A DNA stretch of 20,000 nucleotides, taken from an uncultured virus (IMG/VR IMGVR_UViG_3300018427_000754). Lineage: Duplodnaviria; Heunggongvirae; Uroviricota; Caudoviricetes. The stretch lies in the IMG/VR virus record IMGVR_UViG_3300018427_000754. One strand, 5' to 3'. The translations under genes and the position numbers were made by a program. Positions 9,545-19,767 of this stretch are shown here, piece by piece. The stretch's first letter is position 1. Every line of letters starts with the position of its first letter. The notes under the pieces are model-generated. The model made no database searches, was not told where the DNA came from, and saw nothing but the letters and a program-made list of their open reading frames with translations.

Positions 9545-12500
9545 CTACCCCCACTGCACATGGCTGCCTTCCTCGTCTTTTACAATGGTAACCGCCTGTG
9601 GGAATCGTGACTTGAATTCTGGGTCATGAGTGATTGCCATGACGATAGTATCTGGATATCTCTCCCGGATGGTCTCCAGGGCATCACAATATGCATTTGT
9701 TCCATCTGCATCGAGGAAAGGAGCTTCATCAATGAAGAGCATTCCTAACTGGATTCCCGCATAAGAGGCTTTTACTTCTGCCAGTGCCAAGATAACTGCC
9801 AGGGAAGCCTTTACTTTCTCTCCGCCGGATTTGGACACATAAGGCATAACGTTCTTGCCATATTCATGAATAAGGACATCCAGCGCCGGCTTTTCCCCGC
9901 CGCCTTTCTTTGACGCCTCTTTTTCAAGAGAAAATTCAATTCCCATCGTTCCACCCGTCATGGATCCAAGAATAGAGTTTGCCACACCCGTGATATGCGG
10001 TATGAAGTTACGGATGATCTGATGAGGAACACCGTCTTGTGAGAATGCCTGTTTTAAAGTCTCATAATAGCTCTGTAGCTTACTGTTCTCTTTTACCTGT
10101 GCACGAAGTACTTTTACATCTGCTTCCAGTGCCTTTACATCTTCCGCTCTCTGAATGATACCGCCTTTCTTTACCTGCATATCCATGAGCTCTCCCTGTA
10201 AAGCATCGATTCGTGTACGAAGAACTTCCGGTTTCTCATTCACAGTGAATGTAAAGGTATCCGATAATGCTTTTACTGCGAACATGGATTTCTGACACTC
10301 TTCACACTGTTCATCCAGTTCTTTCCACTCTTTTTCATAAGACAGGATGCTCTCTTCAATAAACTGCATCTTGGTACGAAAGACCGGAATCTGTTTCTCC
10401 TTTTCCACATATGGTGCAAGTTCCGCACAGCGGTTTCTCACATTCTCGTATTCACCCTGTATACCAGAAAGCCCATCAACGGTTTCCGTTGCTCTCTGGA
10501 TGTCCAGAATGAGCGTAGAGAGCGTCTGCTCGTATTCCCTTAGGAATTTATGACTGGATTCTTTCTCTGCCTCTAAACGGGCAATCTGAAGCTTGTTCTC
10601 GTCATTCTGTTTTTTCATTAATTCATATTTCTCTAAAGCATAGATTTCAGAAATAAGACGTTCTTCCTCGTGTGGGTCATATCCGATCTGCTCAATCTCA
10701 ACACTAAGGCTGGCATCCAGCTGTTCATACCGAGCTTTGCACTGTGCTGCATTTGATTTGGCCATCTCGTAAAGTTCTCTATGACTCTCTGTCGTAAGCA
10801 CCATCTCTTTTGCTTTTTTCAAGAACTCGCATCTAGCGTTCCCAACATCGATGCAGCCGGACTGGTTCAAGAATCTCTGCTGTTCTTCACAGGCATATAC
10901 CCGGAGCTTTTCCTGGTCCTCTTTATTTGTCCAATGCTGATATTCCTCCAGGATTTCTCTTCGTTTATCGCTGGTCTTTTCTCGGTGCTCAAAATAAAGC
11001 TCTTTCTTCCTTCTCTGTTCGCCCAAAAGAGCGCGAAGCGAAAGAAGCATTCCGTATCTTTCCTCAAGGTCTGCCGGATAAAGATTCTGATAATATGCTA
11101 TCTTTTCGTCGATTTCCGAAATTTTTTCTTTTAGCAGAGTGATTTCCTGTTCTGTCTTTGCTGTTTTCGTTCTGAAAGCTTCTAACTGCTTCAGGGCTTC
11201 TTCATATTGTGCCTGTTTTTTGGACAGCTCTGGAAGCATTTCGGTAAGTCTGGTGTGTTCTGCAACTGCAGAAACAATCACCGCTTCTTCTTCTAAGAAC
11301 TTTTTATAAATTCCTATCTCAAGTTCTGCTTCCTGTTTCTTATTTGCAATCTCGTTCTTCTTTCGGCAGAGGTCGCCACGCTTTTCCGTCAGCTCCCAAT
11401 ATTCAGACTTTAATTTTTCATATGCCGCATGTTCCGTCCTAGCCGTTGCTTCCTGCTCAATGCATACCATTATGTCTTTTTCGGTCTTCTCGATACGGTT
11501 TTCCAGTTCGTCCAGTTCCTGTTCCGGGTCTCCCTTACTCTTGATCTGATTGCTCTTTACTTCAATCTTTGTATTACCTGAGGCAACTTCCCTTTTGAAA
11601 GCTGTGAACTTTGCTTCTGCTTCTTTTTTCATCTCTTCATAAAGCTTCAGCCCCAGAAGATTTCCAAGAATGGCCATGCGGTCTGTTTTATTTGCCTGCA
11701 AGAATAATCCATACTGGTCCTGCATGATAAGGGCACAGCTCTTAAATGTCATGCTGTCCATGCCGACGATTTTTTTGATTTCCTCTTCCGTCTGGTCCAT
11801 GGTTTCTTTTGATACGTTTATCCAGTCGGTTCCATTCTCCGCGAGCTGGGAAATATTCAGCTTTGGAGCGCCGTATTTCGCCCTGCTTCTAAGGATACGG
11901 AACCGTTTTTCTCCAATATCGAAGATGAATTCTATATCACCGGACTTGGCATCGTCGGAGGCTCGGATCCAGCCGACCTTTTTCCCTTCTCTTGGTTCTT
12001 CGAACAGGCAGTCAATAATGGCATCCATAAAGAGACTGCTCTTCCCTGCTCCATTCGTTCCATTGATGGTGCAGAATGTAACATCTGAGAAATCAAAAGA
12101 AGCTTCTTTGTAGTTTCGGTAATTCTTTACACGAATGGATACCGGCCGGAACACTCCGTTGTAAAGAGCCTCACCGTTCTGGCTCAGCGCCTTGGAGATA
12201 ATAGGTTCTGCCAGTTCTGTGATAGCATCCGCATCCTTGATGCATTTTTCGTCTAAATACTTTTTCAGATTGGCCAAAGGGTCGCTCTCTTCTGACAGCA
12301 GTCCTTTATTTACTACATCGAACACTGTCTCTTCCAGAACATCCGTGACCATGAATGCTCCCATGTCTGTCAGAGACTTTCTGAGAAGATGCGTATTCAA
12401 TGCCTTTTTCTGTTTCTCTGTACAGTCATATTTGACACGTACGATTTTCCCGTCTATTAATTCTGGATAATTATTTGCCTGAAGGAACAGTTCTCCAGTC

Positions 12501-13390
12501 TGCAGATATTCCTCAACATCTTCCGTGCTCCATTTAATGGTCTGGAACTGTCGGTAAGGTGTCGTAATAAATCTGGATCCAAGCACCCATCTGCCATCTA
12601 GTTCTTTAAAATCATGAATGAAGAAACCTCTTTCCTGCCCTTCGTCATTAAAATTAAGTGCGTTGATTGCACCGGAATAAAAAACATTGCGAAGTCCTTC
12701 GATTTCCTGCGGCCGGTGGATATGCCCAAGGAATACTCCGTCGAAATCAGCTGCAAGAAGAGCTTCCTGTGGAATCACCGGTTCAAAATTGGCAAAGAAT
12801 GCGGTCTGTCCGGATTCTGCATTCGCTCCCGGCACTGTGTAATGCGCCATAAGAATTGCCGGTTTGTCTTTTCCGCACATAGCACGGAGTCCCATGGTGA
12901 TGGTACTGATATGTTCTGTCCAGATCAGATTCTCATCTTCAACTTTGACATCAGGGAACTTCGCTCTAAATTCCTGTTTTTCAAACCCCGGTATGCAGGC
13001 GATATCTGCATATGCTGTATGTATCACTTGCGGCTCCATAACTACTTCTACGTTCTTGTACGGTGCCAACAGTTCTGCCAGCATCCTGTACTGACCGGCT
13101 CCATCATGATTCGGTGTGCCTCTCATAACAATCACATGCTCTGCGATTGACGCCAATTCCACGATAAAATCTGTCGCTGTCAATACCTCATCCGTGTATC
13201 TGGATGGAGCAACAAGCTCCTTATCTAAAATGTCTCCTGAGATACAAACGATATTGGGGATTTCTTCCCATGCCTTATTTACCATGTGACGGATACAGTT
13301 CAAAGTATCCATATAACGGACATTCACTCCGTTCTCCATCGGTCCTTGCTGTGGACCGATATGCCAATCTGCTGTATGTAAAATCTTCAT
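9545..13390 (-). CDS. SbcD-SbcC (Mre11-Rad50) fusion nuclease/ATPase
   Basis: N-terminal phosphoesterase motifs ADWH, GDILD, GTPNHD, MAH, GHIH; then Walker A GTNGAGKSS, Q-loop, long coiled coil, signature SGGEK, Walker B LFIDE, H-loop ITHD. Confidence 0.92.
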   Translation of the reverse strand: MKILHTADWHIGPQQGPMENGVNVRYMDTLNCIRHMVNKAWEEIPNIVCISGDILDKELVAPSRYTDEVLTATDFIVELASIAEHVIVMRGTPNHDGAGQYRMLAELLAPYKNVEVVMEPQVIHTAYADIACIPGFEKQEFRAKFPDVKVEDENLIWTEHISTITMGLRAMCGKDKPAILMAHYTVPGANAESGQTAFFANFEPVIPQEALLAADFDGVFLGHIHRPQEIEGLRNVFYSGAINALNFNDEGQERGFFIHDFKELDGRWVLGSRFITTPYRQFQTIKWSTEDVEEYLQTGELFLQANNYPELIDGKIVRVKYDCTEKQKKALNTHLLRKSLTDMGAFMVTDVLEETVFDVVNKGLLSEESDPLANLKKYLDEKCIKDADAITELAEPIISKALSQNGEALYNGVFRPVSIRVKNYRNYKEASFDFSDVTFCTINGTNGAGKSSLFMDAIIDCLFEEPREGKKVGWIRASDDAKSGDIEFIFDIGEKRFRILRSRAKYGAPKLNISQLAENGTDWINVSKETMDQTEEEIKKIVGMDSMTFKSCALIMQDQYGLFLQANKTDRMAILGNLLGLKLYEEMKKEAEAKFTAFKREVASGNTKIEVKSNQIKSKGDPEQELDELENRIEKTEKDIMVCIEQEATARTEHAAYEKLKSEYWELTEKRGDLCRKKNEIANKKQEAELEIGIYKKFLEEEAVIVSAVAEHTRLTEMLPELSKKQAQYEEALKQLEAFRTKTAKTEQEITLLKEKISEIDEKIAYYQNLYPADLEERYGMLLSLRALLGEQRRKKELYFEHREKTSDKRREILEEYQHWTNKEDQEKLRVYACEEQQRFLNQSGCIDVGNARCEFLKKAKEMVLTTESHRELYEMAKSNAAQCKARYEQLDASLSVEIEQIGYDPHEEERLISEIYALEKYELMKKQNDENKLQIARLEAEKESSHKFLREYEQTLSTLILDIQRATETVDGLSGIQGEYENVRNRCAELAPYVEKEKQIPVFRTKMQFIEESILSYEKEWKELDEQCEECQKSMFAVKALSDTFTFTVNEKPEVLRTRIDALQGELMDMQVKKGGIIQRAEDVKALEADVKVLRAQVKENSKLQSYYETLKQAFSQDGVPHQIIRNFIPHITGVANSILGSMTGGTMGIEFSLEKEASKKGGGEKPALDVLIHEYGKNVMPYVSKSGGEKVKASLAVILALAEVKASYAGIQLGMLFIDEAPFLDADGTNAYCDALETIRERYPDTIVMAITHDPEFKSRFPQAVTIVKDEEGSHVQWG

Positions 13391-16450: not shown

Positions 16451-16657
16451 TTATGTGCAAAAAAAATCCGTTGATTTATCACATGCTTCAGAAATGATAA
16501 CAGCCATCTCGTAACTTAGTCTAATATTCCCACGTTCAAGTTCTGAAACCCATTGTTTTGACTTTCCTATCATTTTCCCGAGTTCTGTTTGAGTCAATTT
16601 TGCTTCGCATCGAGCATCTTTTACTCTTTGTGATACATTCATGGTTTCGATTTTCAT
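16451..16657 (-). CDS. Cro-like XRE repressor
   Basis: LTQTELGKMIGKSKQWVSELERG; ATG 16657 after GAAAGGAGG; divergent from cI. Confidence 0.88.
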   Translation of the reverse strand: MKIETMNVSQRVKDARCEAKLTQTELGKMIGKSKQWVSELERGNIRLSYEMAVIISEACDKSTDFFCT

Positions 16658-16696
16658 TTTGCCCCTCCTTTCAGTCCATGTTTTATGGACATTATC

Positions 16697-16725
16697 ATAA
16701 TAGTCCATTTTTTATGGATTGTCAA
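16697..16725 (-). promoter_or_regulatory. lytic (cro) promoter
   Basis: TTGACA(16725-20), 17-bp spacer, TATTAT(16702-697); the spacer is exactly operator 16703-19. Confidence 0.8.
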
Positions 16726-16811: not shown

Positions 16812-17447
16812 ATGTCAGGAAAAAGAATTAAATATTTACGAAAATTGAATAACCTTACTCAAACAGAATTAGGAAAAAAGTTAGGTGTAATTAAACAGAC
16901 TGTCAGCAGCTGGGAAAATGATATTTCTCAGCCAAGTAACGATTCTTTAGCAATTATGTCGAAACTATTCGGTGTCAGCATTGACTATATATTAGATGTC
17001 GATAATTCTACTTACTTTATCTCATTTGATTCCGACGACGCTGAAATAAAAAACATTTTTCAAAGCAGGCTTAAAAAAAGTTTAGAACGAAGACAAATTG
17101 ATGAAGATGCATTAAGTGAAATTACACACATAGATAAAAATGTAATACACAAGTACTTACACGAAGACAAGCAACCCACTTTTAGGGACTTAAAAGTAAT
17201 CGCCTTTTCTTTGAATATACGAACGGATTATTTGCTTGGTCTGTCTGAAGCAGAAAATTTTGCTGTCGACGAGGCCTATATCCAGACTAATGCCGAATTT
17301 AAGATAGTAAACACCTTTCGATGTTTAAGCGAGGATAATCAGGACATTGCTTTGGGAGAATTAAAAAAACTGTTAAAAGACCAAACCAAAGAAGAAGCTG
17401 ATTTATTATCTGAAGCCAAAACAGGAACAGATGACTCGGGAAAATAA
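16812..17447 (+). CDS. CI-like phage repressor with two XRE HTH domains
   Basis: LTQTELGKKLGVIKQTVSSWEND..QP and a second HTH LSEITHID...YLHEDKQP...DYLLG; RBS AGGAGG; no S24 peptidase domain recognised. Confidence 0.88.
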   Translation: MSGKRIKYLRKLNNLTQTELGKKLGVIKQTVSSWENDISQPSNDSLAIMSKLFGVSIDYILDVDNSTYFISFDSDDAEIKNIFQSRLKKSLERRQIDEDALSEITHIDKNVIHKYLHEDKQPTFRDLKVIAFSLNIRTDYLLGLSEAENFAVDEAYIQTNAEFKIVNTFRCLSEDNQDIALGELKKLLKDQTKEEADLLSEAKTGTDDSGK

Positions 17448-17473
17448 TTCCCTTCGAGTGGTGCCGAAGGGAA
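17438..17473 (+). other. candidate -1 programmed frameshift signal (slippery heptamer plus hairpin)
   Basis: G_GGA_AAA at 17438-44 in frame just before TAA; hairpin TTCCCTTCG/CGAAGGGAA at 17448-73. Confidence 0.55.
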
Positions 17474-17494
17474 CATTTAAGAAAGAGATAATCC

Positions 17495-17827
17495 ATGAAG
17501 AATACAGGTCAAATCATCAAATCTCTCCGGGAAGAATCCAGGATGTCCCAGTTGCAGCTGGCCAAGATTGCTGGATGTTCCGGACAAGTTATTTCCAATA
17601 TTGAAAGAAGCTACACCAAGCCTACGACTGATATCGTGCATCGGATAGCTGAACATTTTAAAATATCTGCAGACTATATCCTCGGCCTTTCTGAGGAAAG
17701 ATGCAGATCTGCTCTTGCCATTACTGACAATAACGAAATAGACATCATTGAACAGTTCCGGAGACTGACCTGTGAGAAACAGGAGATGTTGATGGCCATC
17801 ATAACAGAGATGTCTAAATCCATCTAA
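17495..17827 (+). CDS. second XRE-family HTH regulator
   Basis: MSQLQLAKIAGCSGQVISNIERSYTKP...ISADYILG. Confidence 0.88.
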   Translation: MKNTGQIIKSLREESRMSQLQLAKIAGCSGQVISNIERSYTKPTTDIVHRIAEHFKISADYILGLSEERCRSALAITDNNEIDIIEQFRRLTCEKQEMLMAIITEMSKSI

Positions 17828-17828
17828 C

Positions 17829-17863
17829 AAAAAAGACCATTCCAGCTCTTGGCCGGAATGGTC
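17829..17863. terminator. intrinsic terminator-like hairpin after the HTH gene
   Basis: GACCATTCC(17835-43)/GGAATGGTC(17855-63) with an A6 run on the left, i.e. a U tail on the minus strand. Confidence 0.6.
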
Positions 17864-17876
17864 GTAATTTTATAAT
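17849..17876 (+). promoter_or_regulatory. promoter of the small toxin gene
   Basis: TTGGCC(17849-54), 16-bp spacer, TATAAT(17871-76). Confidence 0.55.
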
Positions 17877-17945
17877 ATGCTTAACCAGGCAACTGGTAGG
17901 ACAGCTTCCATCCACTCCGGAGTCTTACGGAAGGGGATGGTAATT

Positions 17946-18029
17946 ATGAGTACATATGAAGAGTTTATGATTATCATTGCAGTCGCAAGTCTGATTGTAT
18001 CTATTCTTAATTTTACACATAAAAAATAG
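17946..18029 (+). CDS. 27-aa hydrophobic type I toxin (holin-like toxin type)
   Basis: Manual translation MSTYEEFMIIIAVASLIVSILNFTHKK*: one TM helix and a basic tail; SD GGAAGGGG. Confidence 0.8.
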   Translation: MSTYEEFMIIIAVASLIVSILNFTHKK

Positions 18030-18125
18030 CCGTCCTGTCTCTGGTAAAGCCTAGGACGACTATTTCAAGTTAACTGTTTTCCCGGAGCGGATGGGGTGCA
18101 TCCATCTTTTCCAGTTGTCTTGTTA
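18021..18125 (-). ncRNA. putative antisense antitoxin sRNA (~105 nt)
   Basis: Minus-strand promoter TTGACT(18158-53), 16-bp spacer, TG-T-TATAAT(18136-31); terminator stem AAATAGCCGTCCT/AGGACGACTATTT (18024-65) with U run; convergent with the toxin gene. Confidence 0.65.
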
Positions 18126-18252
18126 AGTATATTATAACAATTTAGTTTAAAAAGTCAACGCAACTTTTTAACATGGGTTTTTATCATTCCATTGCTGGTA
18201 GTCTGGACAGCTTTCCTTCACGTGTCCAACAATCACATACGGAGGTGGCACT

Positions 18253-19767
18253 ATGCCTGCATACAAATATTTTTTAAAAAACGGAAGAGTCAAATGGTAT
18301 GCTACATTCTACTATACTGACTGGACAGGAGAACAATGCAGAAAACTCAAAAGAGGTTTCCTTAGAAAAGCGGATGCCGAAGCTTATGAACGAGAATTCC
18401 TTACAAGGTATGCATCGGATCCGACGATAACATTTGCAGCTCTTGTTGATAACTATCTCGAAGACATGAATGAACGTCTGAAGCCTACAACAATGGGCAC
18501 AAAAACGAACATTATCCAGACCAAGCTCATTCCATTCTTCGGGAAGATGAAGATCAACGAGATTGACGAAGGGAAAATCCGAAAATGGCAGAATGAACTC
18601 ATTCGGTACAGGAATGAGAATGGAGAAGAATTTTCCCAGACATATCTCCGGACCATAAACAACCAGATGTCCAGTATCATGAATTACGCAGTCAAATATT
18701 ATAAGCTCCGTTCTAATCCATGCCACGCAGCCGGATACATGGGCAAGAACAAGGCAGGAGAAATGAATATATGGACACAGAACCGTTTTGAGGAAGTCAT
18801 GCAATATGAGACAAAAAGCATCTATCAGCTCCTGTTCCGGCTCCTGTTCTACAGTGGAATCCGTTCAGGCGAAGTACTTGCTCTGACTCCGGAAGATATC
18901 TGTCGTGATGAAGCTGCCATAGACATCAACAAGAACTATGCTGTGGTCGACCAGATAGAATATTTTCTGACTCCAAAAACCGAGCGAAGCATCCGGAAGG
19001 TCACAATACCTCCATCCCTTCATTCCGATCTGCTGGAATACATCGACAGCATCTACATCGAACCAGAAGAAAGGATATTCTATTTCCGCCGCACCGCCAT
19101 CAGCAAAGAACTGCAGATTGTCATGACAAAAGCAGGCATCGAAAAAGACTCTGAAGAATGGCTTCGAGTCCATGATCTGAGACACAGCCATGCATCCATG
19201 CTGATACACATGAAAAAAGACATCGGAGAAATATCCCGACGTCTTGGCCATGATTCCTATAAGACCACATGGGACACCTATTCCCATCTCTATCCCGGCA
19301 CCGATCGGGCGCTTGCTGATGAAATCGATGAACTCATTGCCAGCGATAACGAGCAACGGAACATAACAGAATCAGAAAGTGAAGGATTCCGGATGATTGC
19401 AGGTTCTCCATTCAGCCGCAAAAGCCAGTATATCCTCAACAAGACTCTGCAGGAAACAAACCCAATGATACATCGAAACAATCAGAGAATTTTCGAAAAG
19501 TATGGCATCGATATCGATTCTGAGCAAATCCTCGGATACAGCTTCGCAGCTTTTGTGGACTATGTGGCATGCGGAGATACTGTCTTTGAACTGCTGACTG
19601 CATTCCGGCCAAACGAGAAGATGCGTGACCTCATGATATCCCTCTTCACAGAAGCGGTGACCACATGCGAGTTGGCCAACGGCAGCATTGAAGACCTCGA
19701 CAGCTACATTACTGACACTATAATCCCTCGATACAGCCGTATTTACAGCACTCAGTATGATGCCTAA
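18253..19767 (+). CDS. int: tyrosine recombinase (phage integrase) with C-terminal extension
   Basis: N-terminal arm-binding WYATFYYTDWTG...KRGF; catalytic residues YSGIRSGE, TPKT, HDLRHSH, LGH, TYSHLY; RBS GGAGGTG. Confidence 0.95.
   Translation: MPAYKYFLKNGRVKWYATFYYTDWTGEQCRKLKRGFLRKADAEAYEREFLTRYASDPTITFAALVDNYLEDMNERLKPTTMGTKTNIIQTKLIPFFGKMKINEIDEGKIRKWQNELIRYRNENGEEFSQTYLRTINNQMSSIMNYAVKYYKLRSNPCHAAGYMGKNKAGEMNIWTQNRFEEVMQYETKSIYQLLFRLLFYSGIRSGEVLALTPEDICRDEAAIDINKNYAVVDQIEYFLTPKTERSIRKVTIPPSLHSDLLEYIDSIYIEPEERIFYFRRTAISKELQIVMTKAGIEKDSEEWLRVHDLRHSHASMLIHMKKDIGEISRRLGHDSYKTTWDTYSHLYPGTDRALADEIDELIASDNEQRNITESESEGFRMIAGSPFSRKSQYILNKTLQETNPMIHRNNQRIFEKYGIDIDSEQILGYSFAAFVDYVACGDTVFELLTAFRPNEKMRDLMISLFTEAVTTCELANGSIEDLDSYITDTIIPRYSRIYSTQYDA

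Follow-up and report, generated by a model that had tools for sequence, protein, structure and literature searches.

A conserved and apparently undescribed candidate recoding signal at the end of repressor genes in Lachnospiraceae-type prophages

Introduction

Does a phage repressor gene that ends in Gly-Lys encode one protein or two? The question is raised by a stretch of 20,000 nucleotides (the window) from a 31.7-kb phage record of an uncultured Caudoviricetes virus (IMG/VR IMGVR_UViG_3300018427_000754), whose immunity module consists of a cro-like gene, an XRE gene, a second HTH gene, a toxin-like ORF and a tyrosine integrase. A sequence-only reading had proposed that some ribosomes slip into the -1 frame at the very end of the XRE gene, giving a second repressor isoform and a translational link to the second HTH gene. 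Known phage -1 frameshifts lie mostly in virion genes. In this study, comparison of related gene ends suggests that the cassette at the end of the repressor gene is a real, conserved and apparently undescribed recoding signal of a family from Lachnospiraceae-type prophages.

Results

The locus and its immediate surroundings are laid out as follows.

16451..16708, minus strand: cro-like HTH gene, an ORF matching PF01381, divergent from the repressor gene
16812..17447, plus strand: XRE repressor gene, 211 aa, with two HTH domains and a helical C-terminal domain, ending in GK-stop
17423..17426, plus strand: SD-like AGGA, 11 nt upstream of the heptamer, optional at best
17438..17444, plus strand: candidate slip site G_GGA_AAA, with the conserved core A_AAA at 17441-44
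17444..17491, plus strand: -1-frame tail IIPFEWCRREHLRKR and its stop, giving a predicted 226-aa isoform
17445..17447, plus strand: frame-0 stop TAA; the preceding A and the TA of the stop form the first -1 codon, ATA
17448..17473, plus strand: hairpin, whose conserved 6-bp core (17451-56 with 17465-70) begins 6 nt past the slip site
17495..17827, plus strand: second HTH gene, an ORF of 110 aa that occupies the variable position behind the element

The 211-aa double-HTH product of the XRE gene matches PF01381 and PHROG regulator/repressor families, and a domain search found no peptidase domain on it. We infer its role as a repressor from the layout, with a divergent cro-like gene on one side and an integrase downstream. 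Its last 13 residues are predicted to be disordered (pLDDT <50 at residues 199-211 of an AlphaFold model). The integrase itself (18253-19767, 504 aa) continues ~150 residues past its catalytic-domain match. Between the second HTH gene and the integrase lies a type I toxin-antitoxin-like unit (17835-18158) around a 29-aa ORF (17940-18029), which has a PF16935 Hol_Tox match below the cut-off (E 5e-4) and a weak likeness to BsrG/rli28; a sense promoter (17849-76), an antisense promoter (18158-31) and a terminator (17835-63) are predicted for the unit. A 1281-aa ORF at 9545-13390, judged by eye, appears to join a nuclease domain to an SMC-like coiled-coil ATPase in an SbcD-SbcC-like manner.

On direct reading of the sequence, the AGGA, heptamer, stop, hairpin and -1 frame all lie exactly where the sequence-only reading had placed them. 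The final repressor codons are TCG GGA AAA (17436-44) with the heptamer in frame, and a perfect 9-bp stem pairs TTCCCTTCG (17448-56) with CGAAGGGAA (17465-73) across an 8-nt loop, with no U run on the plus strand. The -1 frame reads K-IIPFEWCRREHLRKR and stops at 17489-91, followed by TCC and the ATG at 17495; this tail has a Cys where relatives show a near-invariant Tyr. The segment 17445-97 folds at -13.9 kcal/mol (z -2.98, with 2 of 200 shuffles equally good), and the entire 75-nt stretch 17423-97 reaches a z of only -1.49. The hairpin, at -10.5 kcal/mol with a spacer of 5, falls within the stimulator rule that the IS3 passages of PMC4066793 give, namely a hairpin starting 4-10 nt after the motif with at least 7.6 kcal/mol. 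Among the 68 ends of ORFs of at least 80 aa in its own contig, this is the only one formed by a heptamer, and no Rfam match was found over 17423-97 at E<=10. What takes the element far beyond chance is its recurrence in relatives.

A search with the hairpin core matched 106 viral stretches, representing 62 distinct contexts including the window's own. Nearly all directly follow the stop codon of an HTH gene, where the -1 frame always reads K-I-I-x-F-E-W-Y-R; two matches (L009 and L030) were discarded as unrelated and due to chance. With the 3' arm left free, the full stem was present in 53 of 66 distinct matches, and 12 of the remaining 13 follow no long ORF. Since this search had itself fixed the hairpin, relatives were then gathered by protein similarity, identical ends were removed, and the tail was scored by the motif [KQER][IVL][IVLMP][SPDNAG][FL]. 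This motif, which was defined after inspection of the data, was found in the -1 frame of 76 of the 88 protein-selected ends (E<=1e-5) and in none of them in frames 0 and +1, and in the -1 frame of 2 of 16 weaker protein matches. As background, the 325 other ORF ends of the same loci gave 3, 1 and 7 occurrences in the -1, 0 and +1 frames, respectively. The 97 elements obtained fall into 52 clusters at 70% C-terminal similarity, with 30 motif-less ends outside the 52; part of the seed for the underlying alignments (A2-A4) came from loci chosen by their hairpin, so that the counts do not represent independent events. The family gene ends have in common NNA_AAA followed by a stop, a 6-nt spacer, a covarying hairpin and the -1 peptide K-I-I-[S/P]-[F/L]-E-W-Y-R-R, and those in named genomes come from Lachnospiraceae or Clostridium MAGs.

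In 802 further genomes, 17 ends at E<=1e-5 showed the motif twice in -1 and four times in +1, which indicates that the motif is noisy in AT-rich DNA and that the element is confined to the core family. Only four of these genomes' ends belong to the close family (E<=1e-9): two have the full element, one (L470) a similar tail with neither site nor stem, and one none of it. An RNA model run over 151 genomes found only 3 sites, all of them repressor ends already in its training set, and the A4 profile found one match over 301 genomes. A single-sequence locus search found no relative of the window repressor and five weak HTH matches to the second HTH protein, and the GenBank phage collection gave no match to the C-terminal domain of the repressor and none to the element. 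Within the core family, comparison of relatives supports two parts of the proposal: that the repressor gene ends in a -1 recoding signal, and that slippage there would give a further isoform whose tail is conserved.

The tail is under selection as a peptide in the -1 frame. By approximate spanning-tree counts, of 68 single-base changes to its codons, 33 leave the -1 residue unchanged, versus 21% expected (p 3e-7); the same test gave p 0.94 in the +1 frame and p 0.03 in frame 0. For codons outside the motif filter, equally approximate counts gave 15 of 34 synonymous in -1 (p 0.001), and variation is highest at the third and lowest at the second -1 codon position. Serines of the tail are encoded by TCN and also by AGY. 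Even without the motif filter, Tyr or Phe occupies -1 residue 8 in 66 of 70 ends of the Lys-stop type, and the peptide is retained in five hairpin-less members (L153, L155, L250, L252 and L208). Tails are 9-48 residues long in 51 of the 52 representatives and end mostly in basic residues. An LRVV word seen in the +1 frame was set aside, the +1 frame having no synonymous bias. Among distant XRE ends, L246, L260, L269, L270, L275, L262 and L276 have a looser N-[IV]-[IV]-x-[IVL] word in -1 with no A run or stem (4 of 21 in -1 versus 0 in +1; 1 versus 1 in a later sample). Long tails in L038 (1190-1333), L265 (740-877) and L207 repeat an I-I-P word near the end.

The site at which ribosomes would enter this frame is conserved in a simpler form than had been proposed. 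An in-frame heptamer or NNA_AAR is present in 49 of 52 representatives: G_GGA_AAA in 15, any canonical heptamer in 19, NNA_AAR only in 30, and neither in 3. Thus the heptamer of the sequence-only reading is present in the window but is not the conserved unit, which is A_AAA instead; synonymous changes in homologues, named beforehand as evidence against the idea, destroy the heptamer and spare the A_AAA core. Penultimate Gly, Ala and Val codons end in A in 44 of 46 cases, versus a usage of 37-43% elsewhere in these genes, and without the motif filter an A precedes the Lys codon in 64 of 70 Lys-stop ends. The efficient codon AAG is found at the site in just 1 of 52. A_AAA ranks as the weakest of six active tetramers in the E. 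coli data of PMC4066793, so that only a minor isoform would be expected. Peptide-like tails with no A_AAR at the junction occur in L207, L230, L250, L257 and L470.

The frame-0 stop triplet is TAA in 43 representatives, TAG in 2 and a sense codon in 7, and in these seven, where the change is silent in -1, the peptide is kept. The stop also shifts (offsets -4, -13, -40, -46 and +11) while the peptide stays in register with the A run. In many members the -1 frame is open for only 2 codons upstream of the site and contains no start, and the A run is therefore its evident entry. Indels in or near the A run of L156, L060, P0067 and P0208, due to mutation or assembly error, bring the +1 frame over the hairpin. 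In L212 (844-885) and similar loci, the -1 tail itself often ends in GGA AAA TAA, a slip-site pattern inside the ribosome binding region of the next gene.

These observations bear on the best surviving alternative, which we nevertheless consider improbable: a separate micro-protein of 10-15 residues, for which ribosomes would re-initiate on an ATN that overlaps the stop (A-TAA or TAA-TN), with no tail on the repressor. The stop overlaps an ATA in 43 of 52 representatives, an ATG stands at the TAATG position in 2 of 35 cores and also in L470, which lacks a slip site, and PMC4066793 mentions low-level initiation at AUA behind an SD. Yet the codons found there (ATA, ATC, ATT, GTA, GTT and CCN) act as Ile/Val residues rather than as starts, the SD is not conserved, and the 7 of 52 members that lack a stop here retain the peptide. 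Re-initiation would also leave the A before the Lys codon unexplained.

In 44 of 52 representatives, 6 nt separate the site from the 6-bp hairpin core that follows it, and 8 of the 9 stem pairs show two-sided changes. Stem covariation is 0.33, versus 0.165 in shuffled alignments, a control inflated by kinship, and at most 0.198 in slid alignments, which are also lower. The strict threshold of 7.6 kcal/mol is passed by 23 of 52, and a further 21 lie at 5.8-7.2. A U tract follows the stem on the plus strand in just 2 of 52 and the plus strand of the window is not predicted as a terminator, which rules out an intrinsic terminator on this strand. The minus strand, on the other hand, is terminator-like in the window, and a hairpin with a T-rich tail (at least 5 T per 10 nt) is found on it in 50 of 52. 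The hairpin letters were not found in 6 of the 8 supplementary files of PMC8040213, and structured-RNA catalogues may still list this hairpin.

Could the hairpin be an RNA element only, whether an antisense terminator, a processing or stability site or a cover for the next ribosome binding site, with the peptide as a by-product? The minus-strand T-rich tail and the antisense promoter predicted at 18158-31 would suit such a role, and pairing changes do override peptide residue 10 (R/S/G). Against this, G-U wobbles in the core favour the plus strand by 10 to 1, the synonymous -1 bias extends to loop codons (p 0.018), and the peptide survives loss of the stem in members among the 8 of 52 without a full core. 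We therefore regard this explanation as distinctly improbable.

The SD-like AGGA proposed as an upstream stimulator is present in the window, but the family supports it weakly: an SD-like 4-mer was found in 18 of 52 representatives versus 69 of 416 control windows, and largely reflects Thr-Gly codons of one subgroup. The proposed link to a second HTH regulator does not hold across the family. What follows the element varies: the next gene mostly encodes a lipoprotein-like, membrane or zinc-ribbon protein and usually not an HTH protein, and it lies in frame -1, 0 or +1 in 15, 14 and 18 of 47 cases. Coupling of a generic kind has partial support. Where the next ATG is at most 60 nt away, 19 of 21 cases have the -1 stop within -11..+7 nt of that ATG, compared with 8 for the +1 frame and 2 for frame 0; over all 47, this is so in 22.

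It is very improbable, however, that a genuine frameshift exists chiefly for the translational coupling of the following gene, with the tail sequence secondary. The close cases speak for it, as does L106, where the -1 frame enters the next HTH gene. But the supporting cases are related, in 25 of 47 the -1 stop lies away from the next start, the frame of the next gene is random, many of these genes possess an SD of their own, and no conserved peptide would be required for coupling. In L106 (47-374) the -1 frame runs into the HTH gene free of stops and a frameshift would yield a repressor-HTH fusion; in the window, by contrast, a stop lies 3 nt ahead of the equivalent ATG. L327 (207-921) has two tandem repressor-like genes ending in GKSLA and KKSLA, the first with a decayed tail and a -1 frame open for 215 codons into the second, and the second with a compensated stem.

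Finally, a relic of a decayed in-frame tail, or transcriptional slippage adding an A in the A run, would suit the few members with longer A runs, the +1-reading indel variants (L156, P0067, P0208 and L060) and the distant relatives with looser -1 tails lacking site and stem, but is scarcely credible given that most A runs are of four A, that none of 150 database relatives, 112 of them ending in [AGVPK]K, has the peptide in frame with the repressor, and that purifying selection acts alongside a covarying stem at ribosome-stimulator distance.

Discussion

In our judgement, this cassette probably directs programmed -1 ribosomal frameshifting, by which a minor part of the repressor would be extended by a tail of 15 residues. 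In the scenario we propose, the hairpin would slow the ribosome while its decoding centre is on the last Lys codon, or hold it at the stop; tRNA-Lys would then re-pair one base back, the stop would be bypassed, and about 10-20 residues would be added. Most ribosomes would terminate normally, so that the long form would account for only a small share, probably one percent or a few percent. The same ribosomes would melt the hairpin and finish beside the next start codon, and coupling of the next gene may thus be a second output of the frameshift. The lack of fixed in-frame forms fits a tail that is wanted on only a few subunits.

Located on a disordered end, the tail would most likely act as a short linear interaction or protease-docking motif. 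Through a small number of tailed subunits, a repressor oligomer could recruit a host factor, of which a Clp protease or a chaperone is the most plausible, and its turnover and induction could be tuned in this way. If frameshifting occurs, a Clp protease as the partner, the best guess by analogy with phages BPs and Mu, is a possible but still doubtful assignment, and another partner, or self-association of the repressor, is about as likely. More tentative again is the idea of a protease adaptor built by recoding, in which a small, fixed fraction of tailed subunits would deliver the entire oligomer to ClpXP, the frameshift rate would set the induction of repressors that have no self-cleaving domain, and any accessory gene that comes next would be switched on by the same slippage. 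The tail presumably resembles the ClpX-binding tail of alphaproteobacterial SspB. Across the family C-termini (P0104-P0249), 86 of 150 relatives contain an internal VAA located 7-24 residues from the end, with 8 and 14 the commonest distances; it is absent from the window protein. In one subgroup the word is VAAGE, which has what we take to be a likeness to the LexA cleavage site. AVAA at C-termini is described as a ClpX degron in S. mutans in the relevant part of PMC10782952. Complex prediction with a Lachnospiraceae-family ClpX N-domain dimer and the 48-residue L038 tail gave a score of 0.18. A tail profile found no match among 2426 candidate longer proteins at E<=10, which is weak evidence; no family or structure match to the tail was found in PDB sequences, PHROGs or Pfam, and ESM Atlas leads stayed under 0.9.

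The cassette would be a selected recoding signal that gene calls miss, the extra product being only ~15 residues longer. If real, it would add translation-level control to a lysis-lysogeny switch, offer a testable route of induction for repressors with no peptidase domain, and explain why the proteins of this family end in a small residue and Lys. It would also provide a small frameshift signal of natural Firmicute origin, for which compensatory variants already exist.

Among known systems, the lambda G/GT tail chaperone frameshift uses a G_GGA_AAR-type site like that of some members here. A G/GT-type arrangement was rejected, since the tails are of 9-48 residues in 51 of 52, the genes belong to a regulator module and there is no long fused ORF. 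In Mu vir mutants, a frameshifted tail destabilises wild-type repressor subunits in trans; those tails are DNA mutations, whereas here the signal for recoding is conserved. The Mu repressor itself has a C-terminal ClpX determinant and its tail governs its fate, as sections of PMC10584840 describe.

No conserved frameshift tail on phage repressors is described in the full text searched, which includes portions of the Atkins 2016 review, PMC8138137 and bioRxiv 2020.06.12.148478, although subscription papers and GeneTack tables could list one. The nearest case is cro of Lactobacillus phage A2, likewise a -1 frameshift in a lysis-lysogeny regulator; as summarized in PMC5009743, it was seen in E. 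coli, gives a shorter product and seems to have no relevance in its natural host, which cautions that slippage can be without consequence. Mycobacteriophage BPs immunity likewise uses two repressor forms that differ by a C-terminal extension, with mixed oligomers suggested, but there, according to the parts of PMC4557955 and PMC3694055 that treat it, recombination at attP determines which form is made and the long form carries an ssrA-like tag at its C-terminus, whereas here control would be translational. BPs-type immunity was therefore rejected for this family, whose mostly basic tail ends have no ssrA-like tag.

Sequence features of IS3- and dnaX-type frameshifting are present, namely an in-frame motif, a 3' hairpin and a selected -1 frame without its own start. 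As treated in sections of PMC4066793 and PMC5009743, IS3-family and dnaX frameshifts share a Z_ZZN or X_XXY_YYZ motif on Lys codons and a hairpin 4-10 nt downstream; unlike them, the present site lies at the very end of a regulator gene with the stop directly after it, uses AAA rather than AAG, and would add only 10-20 residues. The Bacillus subtilis cdd site A_CGA_AAG, in the account of PMC5009743, is likewise from a Firmicute, is an NNA_AAR hexamer and yields a C-terminally extended product. That frameshift is called incidental there, whereas the present family conserves site, stem and peptide across 52 clusters.
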